This document shows, one piece after another, positions 74 to 6,124 of a stretch of DNA of 64,000 nucleotides. Below the pieces are notes generated by a model that was given only the letters and a program-made list of their open reading frames with translations, was not told the origin of the DNA and searched no databases. Within the stretch, counting starts at the first letter, position 1; every line of letters begins with the position of its first letter. The position numbers and the translations under genes were made by a program. Origin of the DNA: an uncultured archaeon (GTDB lineage Archaea; Iainarchaeota; Iainarchaeia; Iainarchaeales; 1-14-0-10-31-34); contig CAZSOZ010000001.1 in the NCBI GenBank assembly GCA_964608675.1, forward strand, positions 1 to 64,000, written 5' to 3'.

Positions 74-772
74 TTAAAAGTTTTTGATTTCAACTATTTC
101 AAAAAAAGGTTCAAGCAAAAGTTTTAGTTCTTCCATTTGTTTAATACTAAAAGGTTTTTTGTTTTGAAATTCAGAATCAACCAAAGGAACATCAGGATTA
201 AACTGCTGTAAAGAAAAAATTCTGCTGTCTTTAAGCCATTCAGCAATCTTTAAGGCATCTTCTTTTGAAAAGAATTCAGGAACAACAGTTGAACGAAATT
301 CATATTCTAAACCTGAATTCTTAATTAATTGAACGCTTTCCTTTATTTTTTCAACATTAATTTTTACTCCGCATAAATCAGAATACTTTTCAGGAGAAGT
401 TTTAATATCCATGGCAATAAAATCAACTAAGTTTTCTTCAATTAATTTTTTTAGCATTTCAGGATTTGAACCATTTGTATCAAGTTTTACTTCAAAACCC
501 ATTTCTTTAATTTTTTTGCAGAAAACAGGAAGGTCTTTATGTAAAGTTGGTTCTCCTCCAGTAATGCATACTCCTTGAAGCCAGTTCTTTCTTTCTTCAA
601 GAAACAAAAAAAATTCTTTTTCATGCAGAACAGGCAAATTAGAATCAGCTTTAATTAAATCAGGGTTCTGACAGAACCCGCATCTGAAATTGCATCCTGC
701 AGTAAAAACCGTGCACGCAATTCTTTCAGGAAAATCAATTAAAGTTGTTTTTTGAAGTCCTTTTAAAATCAT
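74..772 (-). CDS. nrdG: Anaerobic ribonucleoside-triphosphate reductase activating protein (radical SAM)
   Basis: CNFRCGFC radical-SAM motif, ITGGEPTL, KLDTNGS; directly downstream of nrdD. Start moved to ATG at 772 (MILKGLQKT); the upstream extension in the ORF track is T-rich intergenic sequence. Confidence 0.93.
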   Translation of the reverse strand: MILKGLQKTTLIDFPERIACTVFTAGCNFRCGFCQNPDLIKADSNLPVLHEKEFFLFLEERKNWLQGVCITGGEPTLHKDLPVFCKKIKEMGFEVKLDTNGSNPEMLKKLIEENLVDFIAMDIKTSPEKYSDLCGVKINVEKIKESVQLIKNSGLEYEFRSTVVPEFFSKEDALKIAEWLKDSRIFSLQQFNPDVPLVDSEFQNKKPFSIKQMEELKLLLEPFFEIVEIKNF

Positions 773-814
773 GTTTAATTCCTCTAAAAAAAAAAGAAAA
801 AAAAGAAAAAACAA

Positions 815-979
815 TTAAATTTTTTTTTCTGCTTTAATTAAATTTGACATTGTTTTTTGTTCATGGTATTCAAGTCTGTCTTTGAATTCTTCTGTTTTTC
901 CTTGATTCCAGTTTTGGACCGGCCTGAAATAACCGACAATCCTTGAATAAGTTTCGCATTGAGTATTGCATTTAGCCAT
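815..979 (-). CDS. Stand-alone NrdD glycyl-radical domain (54 aa; not in ORF track)
   Basis: Translates MAKCNTQCETYSRIVGYFRPVQNWNQGKTEEFKDRLEYHEQKTMSNLIKAEKKI*, containing the NrdD glycyl-radical motif YSRIVGY-RP...WN.GK..EF.DR. SD GGAGGT (993-988) lies 8 nt before the ATG; the ORF overlaps the end of nrdD. Confidence 0.88.
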   Translation of the reverse strand: MAKCNTQCETYSRIVGYFRPVQNWNQGKTEEFKDRLEYHEQKTMSNLIKAEKKI

Positions 980-3011
980 TTTTTATTACCTCCTTTTCTG
1001 GTTCTTTGCCTTTAAGCTGAGGGCTTTCAGCAGTATTTCCTTCAGAAACCTCTAAAGGACAATTAAAATGTTCTCCTTTAATGTATCCGTGAACAGGACA
1101 AACACTAAAAGTAGGAGTAATTGAATAATAAGGCAGTCTAGTGTTTTCTGCAATTTTTTTAACTAATTCTTTGCAGGTTTTTCCATCACTTATTTTTTCT
1201 CCTAAAAAAGTATGAAAAATTGTTCCGCCTGTATACAAAGGCTGAATTTCATTTTGATGCATTACTGCAGTGATTGCATCATCTGTATGATTAACAGGAA
1301 GCTGAGTTGAATTAGTTAAATAAGGTGTTTCTGTTCCTGCAGTATGAATTTCCGGATGATACTTTTTGTCAAGCATTGCTAATCTGAAAGAAGCTGATTC
1401 AGCAGGAGTTGCCTCCAAATTATATAAATTCTTTGTTTCTTTTTGGAAATCAAAACACTTTTGTCTCATAAAAGACAAAGTTTCAATTGCAAACTGTTTT
1501 CCTTCTTCAGAAGCAATGTCTTTATCTAAAAAATTTACACACGCTTCATTCATTCCAACCAATCCAATAGTAGAAAAATGATTATTGAAAGTTCCAAGAT
1601 AAGCTTTAGTGTAAGGCATTAAACCGTTCTCTAAATTCCTGTTAATTATTTTTCTTTTTATTTCCAAAGCATCTTTTCCTAAATTCATGTAATACTCTAC
1701 TTTTTTAAAAAATTCATCTTTTGTTTTTGATTCAAATGCAATTCTGTTTACATTAAGAGTTATTACTCCAATGCTTCCTGTTGCATCTCCAGGACCCCAC
1801 ATTCCTCCAGGACGGTTAATTAACTGAGAGGTATCCATGTTCAATCTGCAGCACATTGCCCTGATGCTTCTTGGATCCAAATTTGAACCAATATAATTCT
1901 GAAAATACGGGATGCCGTATTTTGCTGTTACATCAAATAATAATTCTGCGTTCTCTGAATTCCAGTTAAAATCTTTTGTAAGGTTGTAAGTAGGAATAGG
2001 AAAAGTAAAAATTCTTCCATTTGCATCTCCTTCCCTCATTACCTCCAAAAACGCTTTGTTAATCATATTCATTTCTTTCTGGCAGTCCCCGTAAGTAAAA
2101 TCCTGCTCTTTTCCTCCGACAACTGCTTTTTCTTTTTTCATGTCTTCAGGAACAGTCCAGTCAAAAGTCAGATTAGAAAAAGGATATTGGCTTCCCCATC
2201 TGCTAGGAATATTCAAAGAATACACTAATTCCTGCATGCACTGTTTTGTCTGCTTATAATTAAGGTTGTCTGCTTTGACAAAAGGAGCCAGTAAAGTATC
2301 AACAGAAGAAAAAGCCTGTGCGCCTGCAAACTCCATTTGCAGGCAACCAATAAAATTAACCATTTGATGAACTACAACATCCAAATGCTTTGCAGGTTTT
2401 GCATCAACTTTGTTTGCTACTCCTCCAAAACCCTTAACCAACAAGTCTTTTAAAGCCCAGCCGGCACAATAACCAATAAAACCATGGCTTAAGTCATGAA
2501 TATGAATGTGTCCTTTCTTGTATGCTTCGCTTACTTCTTTTGGATAAATTTTAGTTAAAGCATAAGAAGCAATAACTTTTCCAGCAGTATGCAGAAGCAA
2601 ACCAGAAAAAGAATAAGCTTCGTTGGAGTTTTCTTTGACACGCCAGTCGTCCTGCTGAAGGTATTCATTAATTGTATCCTCTACATCAATAAAAGTGTCC
2701 TTCATTTCTCTTATTTTAGCATGCTGTTCTCTGTACAAAATAAAAGCTTTAGCTGTTTTTGCATGGCCTTCTTCAATTAAAACTTTTTCAACTATGTCCT
2801 GAATTTGTTCAACTGAAGGAACATCAGTAGGAGAATCAAATTTAATTCTTAAAACAAAAACAACTTTGTCAGCTAGTTTTCCTGAAGTTTCTAAATCACT
2901 TCCGCCAACACTTTGAGCGGCTTTAAAAATAGCTTTAACGATTTTTTCTTTATCAAATTCAGCTATTTCGCCGTTTCTTTTTTTAATTTTTTTAAAATAT
3001 TTTTCTCCCAT
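972..3011 (-). CDS. nrdD: Class III ribonucleoside-triphosphate reductase catalytic subunit with N-terminal ATP cone, lacking the C-terminal glycyl-radical domain
   Basis: ATP cone (IKKRNG..FD..KI...VEQIQDIVE), HIHDL, GYC, AMCCRL finger loop, EATPAES, YTGGTIFH, CPVHG..CP. Ends without RxxGY. Start ATG 3011, or GTG 3044. Confidence 0.93.
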   Translation of the reverse strand: MGEKYFKKIKKRNGEIAEFDKEKIVKAIFKAAQSVGGSDLETSGKLADKVVFVLRIKFDSPTDVPSVEQIQDIVEKVLIEEGHAKTAKAFILYREQHAKIREMKDTFIDVEDTINEYLQQDDWRVKENSNEAYSFSGLLLHTAGKVIASYALTKIYPKEVSEAYKKGHIHIHDLSHGFIGYCAGWALKDLLVKGFGGVANKVDAKPAKHLDVVVHQMVNFIGCLQMEFAGAQAFSSVDTLLAPFVKADNLNYKQTKQCMQELVYSLNIPSRWGSQYPFSNLTFDWTVPEDMKKEKAVVGGKEQDFTYGDCQKEMNMINKAFLEVMREGDANGRIFTFPIPTYNLTKDFNWNSENAELLFDVTAKYGIPYFQNYIGSNLDPRSIRAMCCRLNMDTSQLINRPGGMWGPGDATGSIGVITLNVNRIAFESKTKDEFFKKVEYYMNLGKDALEIKRKIINRNLENGLMPYTKAYLGTFNNHFSTIGLVGMNEACVNFLDKDIASEEGKQFAIETLSFMRQKCFDFQKETKNLYNLEATPAESASFRLAMLDKKYHPEIHTAGTETPYLTNSTQLPVNHTDDAITAVMHQNEIQPLYTGGTIFHTFLGEKISDGKTCKELVKKIAENTRLPYYSITPTFSVCPVHGYIKGEHFNCPLEVSEGNTAESPQLKGKEPEKEVIKNG

Positions 3012-3283: not shown

Positions 3284-3862
3284 ATGAAAGGAAGGCACCA
3301 TATTCCAAGAAACCTGCAGGAAGTAAAAAAAATTAAATCAAAAACTCCTCCTAAAAGCCACAGAATAAATACAATTAAAAAAAGAATAAAAGCAATTAAA
3401 GAAAAATACAACACGCATTCTTATTTCAGAATAATAAAAAAATATTTTAATAAAATCCCTCTTGAAGAATGGAAACAAACTGGTTTTGGAAAAGAAAGCC
3501 TTAAAGAAATAATCCGGCTTAAAAAAAAATTTAATCCGGATACATTAATAAAATCTAATTTAATCATAATTATAATTGATAAAATAGGAATAACAATATC
3601 AGAAGAAATAAAAGCATTAACCAAAGAAATGAATTCAACAGAAAAAAAAATAAACAAAATAAAAAGAAACAACCCTCTTAAATCAAATGAATACAAAAAA
3701 TATATCCTGCCGTATATTGAACAAAAAAGAAGCATTCTTCTTGAAATAAAACAAAAAGAATTATTCAAAGCATTTATTTACGGAAAAGATAAAAAAACAG
3801 AAGAATTAAGAAAAGAAATAAAAAGAATAAAAAGCAACGAATTTGTTGAAAGACACCTTTAG
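3284..3862 (+). CDS. Hypothetical Lys-rich protein
   Basis: 192-aa ORF with typical A-rich coding-strand composition; no recognisable motif. Confidence 0.6.
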   Translation: MKGRHHIPRNLQEVKKIKSKTPPKSHRINTIKKRIKAIKEKYNTHSYFRIIKKYFNKIPLEEWKQTGFGKESLKEIIRLKKKFNPDTLIKSNLIIIIIDKIGITISEEIKALTKEMNSTEKKINKIKRNNPLKSNEYKKYILPYIEQKRSILLEIKQKELFKAFIYGKDKKTEELRKEIKRIKSNEFVERHL

Positions 3863-4021
3863 TTTGGTTTCCTAACTGTTAAAGGTTAATAAAATCCGAA
3901 TCGTATTAAATATAACAAAAAAAAATCCTTTTAATGCCGTTTTTCCCAATACTATTTTTTCATCGGCAGACAACCCTCTAAACTTACTTAAAGGAAAAAA
4001 AAAAGAATTTTATGGGAAAAT

Positions 4022-6124
4022 ATGAGAGAAGAAAAAACTGAAACTTTAACTGAAACAGAAGAAAATCCTTTTGTAATAAAATTTGAGCAATTCTTTGACC
4101 AGCAATACAAAAAAAAAATAGAAAAGCTTGCTGCTTCTTATCCCGAAAAAAAATCGCTTGAAATAGACTTCAAAGAATTAGAAGAATTTGATTTTGAGTT
4201 AGCTGATTCCCTGCTTGATAACCCTGATTACTTAATTGAAGCAGCAGAACTTGCAATAAAAAACATTGATGTACCTATTCTTGAAACAGAAAAATTTGAG
4301 CCATTCATCAGATTTTATAATCTTCTAAAAGAACAACAGCCTTTGCTAAAAAACATTGGTTCACTGCATTTAGGAAAATTAATTGCAGTAGAAGGAGTAA
4401 TAAGACAGATAACCGAAGTTCTTCCAAGACTCAAAACAGCTAAATGGGAATGCAAAAGCTGCGGCAACACATACAAAACACATCAAGGCGGAACAATGCC
4501 AAAACCTCCAACAATGTGTGAATGCAAAAGAAGAGACTTCAGATTAATAGCAGAATCAAGTGAATTTATAGACAGTCAAAAAATTGAAATACAAGAACCC
4601 TTAGAACACTTAAAAGGCTCAGAACAGGCAGTAAACCTTGAAGTGTATGCAACAAACGATTTAGTGAATAAAGTTGCAGCAGGAGACAGAACAAAAATCA
4701 CCGGAATACTCAGATTAAGGCCTCCAAAAGACAAAAAATTAGTTTTTACAAGATTTCTCGAAGTAGTTCATTTAGAAGAAACTGCAAGAGAATTTGAAGA
4801 AGTTGAAATCACAAACGAAGAAGAAAAAGCAATAAAAGAATTAGCAAAAAAACCTGACATTTATGACATGCTTACTCAAAGCATTGCGCCCGCAATTTAC
4901 GGTCACGAAAAAGTAAAAGAAGCAATAGTGCTTCAATTATTTGGAGGAGTCAAAAAAAATCTTCCAGGAAAAGCAACTGTAAGAGGAAATGTTCACGTGC
5001 TTTTAGTTGGAGACCCAGGAGTAGCAAAATCACAGATTTTAATGGCGGTCAACAAAATTGCTCCAAAAGCAATTTATGTTGCAGGAAAAACTTCTTCTGG
5101 CGTAGGATTAACTGCAAGCGCAGTTAAAGATGATTTTGGAGAAGGAGGATGGACTCTTAAAGCAGGCGCATTAGTTTTAGCAAGCGGAGGATTAAGTTGT
5201 ATTGATGAATTCGACAAAATGGACAAAGAAGACAGAAGCGCAATGCACGAAGCAATGGAACAACAAATGGTTTCAATTGCAAAAGCAGGAATAGTAACAA
5301 GATTTAGAACAGAAACATCAATTCTTGCAGCAGCCAACCCAAAACTTTCAAGATTTGATCCATACGAGCCATTCATTAAACAAATTGATTTGCCTTCAAC
5401 CTTAATTTCAAGATTTGATTTATTTTTCATGATAAGAGATGTTTTAGACAAAGTAAAAGACGAAGAAATTACTTCAAGCATCTTAAAAACACATAAAGCC
5501 GGAGAAATGATGCTTCAAGAAGGAAAAAAAGGAAAAAAAGAAAGCAAAGAAATGCAGGAACTAAAAAAACTTATTACTCCATTAGTAGACAATGAATTGC
5601 TAAAAAAATATATTTCTTATGCAAGACAAAAAATTTCTCCTGTATTAAGCGATGACGCAATAAAAACATTAAGCGAATTTTACTTGAATTTAAGGGAAAT
5701 GGGAAAAAAAGAAGGAAGTTATGCTGCAACCCACAGGCAGTTAGAAGGACTAGTAAGATTAAGTGAAGCAAGCGCAAGAGTAAGGTTAAGCGATACGGTT
5801 GAAAAAAGCGATGCAGAAAAAGCCATAAAACTACTTAAAAATTCATTGCAGGACGTAGTCACTGACCCTGAAACAGGCAGAATAGATATGGATATAATTA
5901 ATATTGGAACAACACACTCAAAGCTGACTGCAATAAGAAATGTATTGAATATTATAAGACAAAAATCAAAAGAACAAGATTTAGTTCCAATAATTGAAGT
6001 AATAGAAGAAGCAAAAAGTATTGGATTAGAAAAAGACAAAGTAAACGAAATTATCTCTGAATTAAAAAGAAAAGGAGAATTATATGAAAAAAAACATGGG
6101 TTTATTTCTCCTGTAGAAAAATAA
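4022..6124 (+). CDS. mcm: MCM replicative helicase
   Basis: Zn finger CKSC..CEC, Walker A GDPGVAKS, IDEFDKM, SRFDL arginine finger, C-terminal wHTH. Confidence 0.97.
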   Translation: MREEKTETLTETEENPFVIKFEQFFDQQYKKKIEKLAASYPEKKSLEIDFKELEEFDFELADSLLDNPDYLIEAAELAIKNIDVPILETEKFEPFIRFYNLLKEQQPLLKNIGSLHLGKLIAVEGVIRQITEVLPRLKTAKWECKSCGNTYKTHQGGTMPKPPTMCECKRRDFRLIAESSEFIDSQKIEIQEPLEHLKGSEQAVNLEVYATNDLVNKVAAGDRTKITGILRLRPPKDKKLVFTRFLEVVHLEETAREFEEVEITNEEEKAIKELAKKPDIYDMLTQSIAPAIYGHEKVKEAIVLQLFGGVKKNLPGKATVRGNVHVLLVGDPGVAKSQILMAVNKIAPKAIYVAGKTSSGVGLTASAVKDDFGEGGWTLKAGALVLASGGLSCIDEFDKMDKEDRSAMHEAMEQQMVSIAKAGIVTRFRTETSILAAANPKLSRFDPYEPFIKQIDLPSTLISRFDLFFMIRDVLDKVKDEEITSSILKTHKAGEMMLQEGKKGKKESKEMQELKKLITPLVDNELLKKYISYARQKISPVLSDDAIKTLSEFYLNLREMGKKEGSYAATHRQLEGLVRLSEASARVRLSDTVEKSDAEKAIKLLKNSLQDVVTDPETGRIDMDIINIGTTHSKLTAIRNVLNIIRQKSKEQDLVPIIEVIEEAKSIGLEKDKVNEIISELKRKGELYEKKHGFISPVEK

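Follow-up and report, generated by a model that had tools for sequence, protein, structure and literature searches.

The stretch of DNA analyzed here (hereafter the window) comprises the 64,000 nucleotides (nt) at positions 1 to 64,000 of contig CAZSOZ010000001.1 (assembly GCA_964608675.1) from an uncultured archaeon of the order Iainarchaeales, and our subject is the class III ribonucleotide reductase (RNR) encoded near its beginning. On the minus strand, a gene for the NrdD core, a small open reading frame (ORF) of 54 amino acids (aa) and the gene for NrdG lie one after another. The nrdD core gene (972..3011) encodes 679 aa from its ATG, closed by a TAA, and holds an ATP-cone domain (aa 8-98, at 2718..2990; PF03477, E 5.1e-22), the catalytic barrel with a finger-loop motif of the double-cysteine type, read from the sequence (M386-C387-C388-R389, at 1845..1856), and the first half of a zinc ribbon, C638, H641 ... 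C651 (CPVH-x9-C, at 1059..1100). Behind C651-P652 follows a variable tail of 27 aa (LEVSEG...KEVIKNG, at 975..1055) outside the Pfam match, and the C-terminal end of the translated core reads SVCPVHGYIKGEHFNCPLEVSEGNTAESPQLKGKEPEKEVIKNG up to its stop. When the 679-aa core was read from end to end, no R-x-x-G-Y motif was found in it. The small gene (815..979), coding for 54 aa and a TAA, begins with MAKCNTQCETYSRIVGYFRPVQNWNQGKTEEFKDR, carries C4 at 970..968 and the radical glycine G16 at 934..932 (SRIVGYFRP), and shares an overlap of 8 nt with the core ORF. The third gene, nrdG (74..772), encodes the radical S-adenosylmethionine (radical-SAM) activase of 232 aa, with the domain PF04055, and the ORF 772..74 matches TIGR02495 (NrdG2) with 221.9 bits against a cut-off of 131.15 (E 4.5e-66).

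The small gene possesses initiation signals of its own. A Shine-Dalgarno (SD) sequence, GGAGGT (988..993), stands 8 nt 5' of its ATG (979..977), the final A of a run of six A (A6, 979..984) is the A of this ATG, and in its frame two TAA stops lie directly upstream, with one codon between them and the start. The 82 nt between the two NrdD pieces are made up of the core's 27-residue tail, its stop, and the SD and ATG of the small gene, and the final codons of the tail are what they are because this SD and start are read in the core frame.

Family profiles run across the two ORFs as across a single protein. In PF13597, positions 1-525 of 562 cover aa 127-652 of the core, as far as P652 (559.9 bits, cut-off 26.2), and positions 526-562 cover the small protein from K3 onward (E 3.1e-11). 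Therefore, both genes taken together represent one contiguous NrdD with an interruption of 82 nt, and the break falls inside the second zinc knuckle, between C651-P652 of the core and K3-C4 of the small protein. The NCBIfam models NF006126 (999.8 bits on the core, cut-off 548, E 5.6e-301) and TIGR02487 are divided between the two proteins in the same way. As to the features by which an NrdD is recognized, the barrel scores above the cut-off, the finger loop is of the MCCR class (the MGCR and MCCR classes are defined in PMC9669993) and an NrdG is adjacent; the glycyl loop (RxxGY) is missing from the same polypeptide and is found on the separate 54-aa ORF. Scans of the small protein against Pfam and NCBIfam returned NrdD families only and no glycyl-radical family of the pyruvate formate-lyase (PFL) type. 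In the PDB, the best solved relative of the core is the NrdD of T. maritima (E 1.1e-32), and a search there with the small protein alone gave a single chance row (E 0.36). An initial annotation, made from the letters alone, had described A6 at 984..979, an SD spacing of 8 nt, a TAA two codons upstream, and a large chain ending in CPLE plus a low-complexity tail and devoid of the radical motif, and had claimed from this a two-chain NrdD whose radical motif sits on a small gene of its own. All of its statements on the sequence hold, those on the large chain being confirmed by sequence and profile match alike, and the continuity of the profile across both ORFs supports the two-chain claim.

The single-chain NrdD/NrdG systems of T. 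maritima (4U3E/4COI) and phage T4 (1H78/1H79) belong to the same family and share its chemistry. Common to them and to the window are the ATP-cone, the barrel, the MCCR loop, the SR(I/V)VGY radical motif, an adjacent nrdG and, as far as homology tells, a zinc ribbon that follows the last barrel strand and precedes the glycyl loop. The zinc site of the T. maritima enzyme is of the Cys/His/Cys/Cys kind. Unlike these enzymes, the window's chain stops in the second zinc knuckle, and the last 37 profile positions form a separate product.

The residues on either side of the break are strongly conserved. C638, H641 and C651 are invariant across 44 aligned cores, and the finger-loop residues M386-C387-C388-R389 are invariant in core alignment A1. 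Among 52 small proteins, S12, R13, V15, G16, Y17, R19, P20, W24, N25, G27, K28, E31, F32 and R35 are invariant, so that G16 lies within an unchanging S-R-x-V-G-Y-x-R-P as the radical glycine, and C4 is conserved in at least 90%. Zinc is ligated through CxxxHx6CxxC in the NrdD of T. maritima and through CxxCx14CxxC in those of T4 and E. coli (PMC4493059). Three of the four ligands (C638, H641 and C651) reside on the window's core, and the fourth would be C4 of the small protein, as judged by homology and by the modelled contacts described below. Fused relatives have either a knuckle of the CPxC type (CAEC, CPQC or CPIC in L016, L018 and L027) or one of the form CP-insert-C, with a loop within the knuckle (CPNKINDHVC and CPIEVNGGQPSKC in L021 and L025), and because they possess a Cys at this spot, C4 appears to be the homolog of the fourth zinc ligand. 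Three results support the proposal that both chains contribute to one zinc site, namely the contiguity of the profile at CP/KC, the CPxC and CP-insert-C knuckles of fused relatives and the modelled contacts, and we infer from sequence and model that the two chains assemble through a shared zinc site. Furthermore, since the loop insertion is found in uninterrupted genes, it hints at where the fission point came from, and comparison of the sequences suggests insertion inside the knuckle as a route to it.

With regard to the far end of the small protein, cysteine is the last residue in five of the six small subunits from the genus (..KIDC, ..KAVC, ..TNIC, ..KPKC and ..ECDC; L002-L006), and C, CxC or GCGCGGGGY closes many other small proteins (P00xx); that of the window, by contrast, terminates in ..AEKKI. 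Such a cysteine-ending tail may be redox-active.

The reality of the split was examined at the NrdD loci fetched from 30 relatives of the same order, 25 of which proved to be split and five fused. Where the core end is present as well (23 of the split loci), the frame of the small ORF relative to the core is 0 in three, +1 in nine and +2 in 11, and the junctions span from a 41-nt overlap to a 58-nt gap; those in frame 0 consist of a plain stop between core and small gene, and the junction of L004 (G005) of a single stop followed by one codon. The small ORF starts with ATG in every split locus, with a motif resembling GGAGG or GAGGTG 6-9 nt 5' of it in about 24 of 25 (counted by reading), and the endings in K-E-V that recur among core tails arise because this SD is translated in the core frame. 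Within the genus, the core tail measures anything between 21 and 53 aa and shows no conservation of sequence, and the ratio of nonsynonymous to synonymous substitutions (dN/dS) of the small ORF is 0.05-0.21 over 15 pairs, which means purifying selection. The protein collection contains 317 short homologs of the small ORF (29-95 aa), one of which (P0001) is identical to its product. The small ORF is, in short, a separate and conserved gene with its own initiation signals, held under purifying selection.

As the two frames lie one base apart at the A6 run, and as the core of the relative G005 contains an in-frame TAA, one may think of a homopolymer error in sequencing or assembly, or of a decaying pseudogene. 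We consider this extremely improbable. Contigs from two samples are identical here: over positions 822-1500 the second-sample contig (X2, record 8) shows 0 differences and 0 gaps, the A6 run included, in a comparison of contigs rather than raw reads, from two samples of one study, one of them possibly the window's own source. The split also recurs in 25 of the 30 relatives' loci and in 103 of 117 matches across the order, the small ORF is under purifying selection, and no other RNR was found in the genome: a search of the 94% complete assembly for class I/II RNR (PF02867), whose control was positive in 12 of 14 named genomes, returned nothing, and the genome holds a single copy of the glycyl-radical domain (GRD), the one within the operon. 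Of the observations that the initial annotation had said would count against a split, two were open to a check, namely five A in place of A6 and close relatives all fused through the same linker, and neither was made, since the second-sample contig keeps A6 at the contig level and all five same-genus genomes are split, with relative frames of +1, +2 and 0. With three relative frames inside one genus, the family can be put down neither to the error of a single base nor to a frameshift site kept in evolution.

The same variety bears on the thought that one fused NrdD is produced after all, through a programmed +1 frameshift, stop read-through or removal of 82 nt from the mRNA, the small ORF never being translated alone. 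The frames would indeed be joined as ...KEVIKMAKC if a single A were lost or the ribosome slipped by +1 at AAA-AAT, and excision of the 82 nt would restore an in-frame C-P-K-C. Nevertheless, this is very improbable, as all three frames occur among the relatives, their junctions lie between -41 and +58 nt and have no slippery run in common; the ATG and SD are kept throughout, so that three recoding mechanisms would be needed in place of one initiation signal; and the stand-alone and phage copies described below have no upstream core to be joined to. The 82-nt insert was also considered as an archaeal bulge-helix-bulge intron, a candidate that was dropped because junction length and frame vary while SD and ATG are retained.

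A complex of the core and the small protein was predicted from custom alignments of both, with a zinc ion included and three controls alongside. The score was 0.73, against 0.00 for the best of the three controls; in a benchmark, 116 of 157 solved complexes and two of 215 mismatched pairs attained the mark applied to this score. The runs agreed in at least 85% of contacts, the predicted local distance difference test (pLDDT) of the partner was at least 71, and the tightest modelled contacts joined residues 4-11 of the small protein with residues 635-651 of the core, that is, with the zinc ribbon. The model shows that both pieces can be fitted into the known NrdD fold.

The split is by no means peculiar to the window. 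Matches were found in 107 of 196 genomes of the order and in 112 of 215 of the phylum-wide collection; counted by rows, 103 of the 117 order-wide matches lie in frames of 37-202 aa and 14 in open frames of at least 592 aa. The nearest proteins carry the source names Micrarchaeota, Diapherotrites, Woesearchaeota, Nanoarchaeota or plain archaeon. Among the best 120 core homologs of the protein collection, 32 stop just past the first zinc half-site, 87 possess the loop and one is a fragment. A scan of prokaryotes with one genome per species, of which the best 80 loci were kept, gave 19 split and 61 fused loci; the split ones include ten from Lentisphaerota/Victivallales (one, L113, a metagenome-assembled genome (MAG) labelled Victivallis vadensis, which is a cultured species) and one from Verrucomicrobia. 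In Victivallales and Verrucomicrobia the break is the same as in the window, the core ending ...CPLE.. and the small protein starting MAKCG.KTEVYSR. Split loci were also met in Nanoarchaeia, in Bilamarchaeaceae and in one Methanosarcinales MAG, whose small protein bears an extra C-terminal domain besides the loop; at the split locus L074 the loop and an extra domain form one long small ORF. A different break point, after the complete CxxC, is used in L007, L009, L028-L030 and L081, and a second, distantly related type of NrdD (33% identity) in G007 and G025 is split between the two zinc knuckles.

In this second type (L034 in G007, at about 2600-2810, and L035 in G025), the core ends ..VCDDCNRVSPGY.., the small ORF carries CPHC and the glycyl loop, and a thioredoxin-like ORF with CPNC follows it. 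About 30 of the best 120 homologs combine NrdD and loop with an extra C-terminal domain resembling thioredoxin or glutaredoxin, at about 817 aa and with the motif YKIFTMPNCDKC (e.g., P0131, P0137, P0142, P0149 and P0153-P0156; PF00462 in some), and in L074 this domain lies on the small subunit.

How often the split arose was approached with a tree of 94 cores, obtained by a quick search and rooted at the midpoint, with some intein-bearing rows on long branches and with L004 (a core piece of less than 300 aa) and the core-less loci excluded. The label split or fused needs 11 changes on this tree, at least six of them forced by well-supported branches, and the bacteria of the PVC group form one all-split clade among archaeal sequences. 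Given the limits of the tree, we read it merely as several events and/or transfers, which would fit a repeated origin of the split, as would the different break of the second NrdD type. It could be thought that all of this reflects neutral gene fission, which would have left a fixed heterodimer acting as an ordinary NrdD, with no gain in repair or turnover and with extra copies as ordinary duplicates. At 1.2 Mb the genome is small, archaea with genomes of this kind are known for their split genes, and the single copy here lies inside the operon. The split class II enzyme NrdJa/NrdJb, moreover, functions as an obligate (NrdJa-NrdJb)2 complex (PMC4520616). We nevertheless hold this explanation to be unlikely, for Victivallales, with contigs of 5.6-5.7 Mb, show this split too, it recurs at no fewer than three points of the zinc ribbon and in a second type of NrdD, and the small gene is found in settings that are unexpected for a fixed subunit, to which we now turn.

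Twenty places were fetched from genomes in which the small gene is present in two or more copies. Six genomes (G012, G051, G088, G090, G093 and G094) have a stand-alone small gene directly 3' of a rubrerythrin gene; a Fur-family regulator was detected upstream in five of these six clusters, and the small genes adjoin genes for peroxiredoxin, desulfoferrodoxin, MsrB, 8-oxoguanine glycosylase (Ogg) or CDGSH proteins. G088 combines such a stand-alone copy with a fused NrdD of 710 aa, and in G051, G093 and G094 the second small copy exists beside a split core. On a Lentisphaeria chromosome (L119), three small genes stand in tandem after the core (3589-3693, 3795-3899 and 4001-4156), two of them with identical upstream regions, and at two Victivallales loci the small gene is part of a prophage-like replication module with no core nearby, its neighbours encoding a PDDEXK nuclease, AAA_24, DUF669, RusA, a helicase and a methylase. 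In G115 the extra copies (L050 and L051) are not accompanied by peroxide-stress genes; their neighbours encode an FTR1 iron permease and a regulator of the ArsR type.

Viruses, too, carry the small gene. Among the best 80 loci of a viral collection, 63 hold the GRD in frames of less than 200 aa with no match to the core within flanks of 3 kb, including four (L155, L162, L165 and L186) in which the loop sits inside an ORF of 170-190 aa, and 17 hold it in longer frames. All five viral records examined as a whole contain only NrdD profile positions 525/526-562, and three of them are rated 100% complete. A tblastn search of GenBank phages yielded only two records at E <= 1e-5, and in PHROGs the stand-alone piece is without a family of its own, its matches being to the ends of NrdD families. 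A small gene that is alone in phages, and that stands beside peroxide-defence genes in the company of a complete NrdD, is most simply seen as a part acting in trans on a core that is made elsewhere. Neutral fission would hardly have led one to expect the triplicate, the copy beside a fused NrdD (G088), the Fur-rubrerythrin clusters or the lone gene in complete phage records, and the stand-alone, tandem and phage-borne copies suggest, as circumstantial support from sequence, a replaceable small subunit.

Taking the evidence together, we think it likely that the window encodes a two-subunit class III RNR, composed of a 679-aa core and an obligate 54-aa radical subunit that is probably replaceable. 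The small protein would be required because the core has no radical site and no other RNR was found; with one copy in the genome, it is here first of all an obligate subunit. According to this proposal, the core would contribute three zinc ligands besides the ATP-cone and the barrel, in which the MCCR finger loop is found, and the small subunit, made from its own ATG behind its own SD, would add the fourth ligand C4 and the glycyl loop with G16. On docking, the small subunit would close the inter-chain zinc ribbon and insert its loop into the barrel, where the NrdG encoded next door would set the radical on G16. Cleavage by O2 at the radical glycine is known for glycyl-radical enzymes (GRE) (PMC12288474, PMC13450708). 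In the present enzyme, O2 would cut the small protein at G16, the loss being limited to the 54-residue subunit; a fresh small subunit could then be made, bound and activated, and the 679-aa core would be spared. Relatives would have gone further, with extra copies beside peroxide-stress genes and with phages that carry the small gene alone.

Several points speak against this interpretation. Only one small gene is found in the genome, with no spare linked to stress, the idea of repair resting on relatives, so that the arrangement here could be just an obligate heterodimer. Gene fission is common in small genomes of the DPANN type and may be neutral. A stub of 15 residues, bearing the putative zinc ligand C4, would have to leave after cleavage at G16 before a new subunit could bind. 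The predicted complex may simply reproduce the single-chain NrdDs that have been solved, and therefore indicates a likeness to the known fold and not binding. The two-chain enzyme is known here from its sequence, the A6 run was checked by assembled contigs, and the second sample came from the same study. Furthermore, the number of independent fissions is uncertain on a quick midpoint-rooted tree and gene transfer could account for part of the pattern, and because kin are not independent, the order-wide counts overstate the number of events.

The proposed replacement brings to mind GrcA/YfiD (E. coli) and Y06I (phage T4), autonomous glycyl-radical cofactors of PFL that likewise are small and consist of the glycyl-radical end only, with extra copies tied to oxidative stress and with a phage-borne version. 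YfiD restores PFL that has been cleaved by O2 (PMC8683613, PMC13450708). In contrast to them, the window's protein is non-homologous (PF13597, NrdD) and carries a probable zinc ligand, and since the radical domain is missing from its parent enzyme, the small protein is required rather than spare. Coexistence with a full-length parent enzyme, as for GrcA, is not seen in the window's genome and is seen in the relative G088. By analogy, the window's small protein may be able to rescue an O2-cleaved parent, as GrcA/YfiD does. A 2026 review, in its account of spare parts, names the formate-lyases as the only GRE class known to have them (PMC13450708).

A parallel in gene structure is offered by NrdJa/NrdJb, the class II RNR of Pseudomonas aeruginosa, whose catalytic chain is likewise distributed over two adjacent genes. 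Its small C-terminal part performs an accessory step, both parts are needed, and it has been called a unique split RNR in a free-living organism (PMC4520616). In the window, adjacency and contiguity are observed, and a need for both parts is suggested by the missing radical site and by the lack of any other RNR; the difference is that NrdJa/NrdJb belongs to another RNR class and that NrdJb holds a redox-active C-terminus, not the radical site. In phages, nrdD was found in pieces in six of 128 surveyed genomes (PMC3653736); these cases are put down to mobile elements (introns, inteins) or to unexplained breaks in single phages, and none is described there as a conserved small radical subunit that has a start of its own. 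A literature search that took in few subscription journals met with no account of an NrdD radical domain on a gene of its own. The separately encoded radical subunit is unreported in the literature searched, and the enzyme of the window is a class III RNR in all but a radical loop on the same chain.

This gave rise to a broader thought, which we put forward as a possibility while leaning slightly to the doubtful side. NrdD-type glycyl-radical mini-proteins may be widespread autonomous radical cofactors, serving as the obligate subunit of class III RNRs that are split by nature (those of DPANN-type archaea, Methanosarcinales, Victivallales and Verrucomicrobia), as spare parts in Fur/PerR-rubrerythrin clusters and as phage genes that re-arm a host core; cells and viruses would in this manner renew an O2-destroyed radical site through the exchange of a subunit some 50 residues long, which would at the same time close a zinc site between the chains. 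Many strict anaerobes depend on class III RNR, and traces of oxygen are enough to destroy its radical. In the window's genome it is the sole route to DNA precursors that was found, and the arrangement bears on how anaerobes keep class III RNR working where oxygen fluctuates. Additionally, a natural two-piece NrdD offers a simple test system, with a radical carrier of 6 kDa, which lends itself to labelling, exchange and tracking by EPR and mass spectrometry, and with a proposed inter-subunit zinc site, and the phage small genes, if the proposal is true, would act on the nucleotide supply of the host. Annotation is affected as well, since such NrdD cores resemble truncated genes, and it is easy to overlook their small genes or to give them the name of a whole reductase.

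A few further observations were made on the core and its surroundings. The in-frame TAA in the same-genus core of L004 (G005) lies between ...HTEDAIEAL and HQNEIQ, where the window has Met, and a protein of 582 aa (P0127) ends at this very stop, for which an error, decay and a further split are all possible causes. Inteins (PF14890/PF14528) interrupt the NrdD cores of several relatives (P0126, P0172, P0195, L018 and L006), which reach 972-1110 aa. Finally, on the opposite strand just upstream of nrdD, the window contains a lysine-rich ORF of 192 aa (3284-3862, plus strand), to which the analysis assigned no function.

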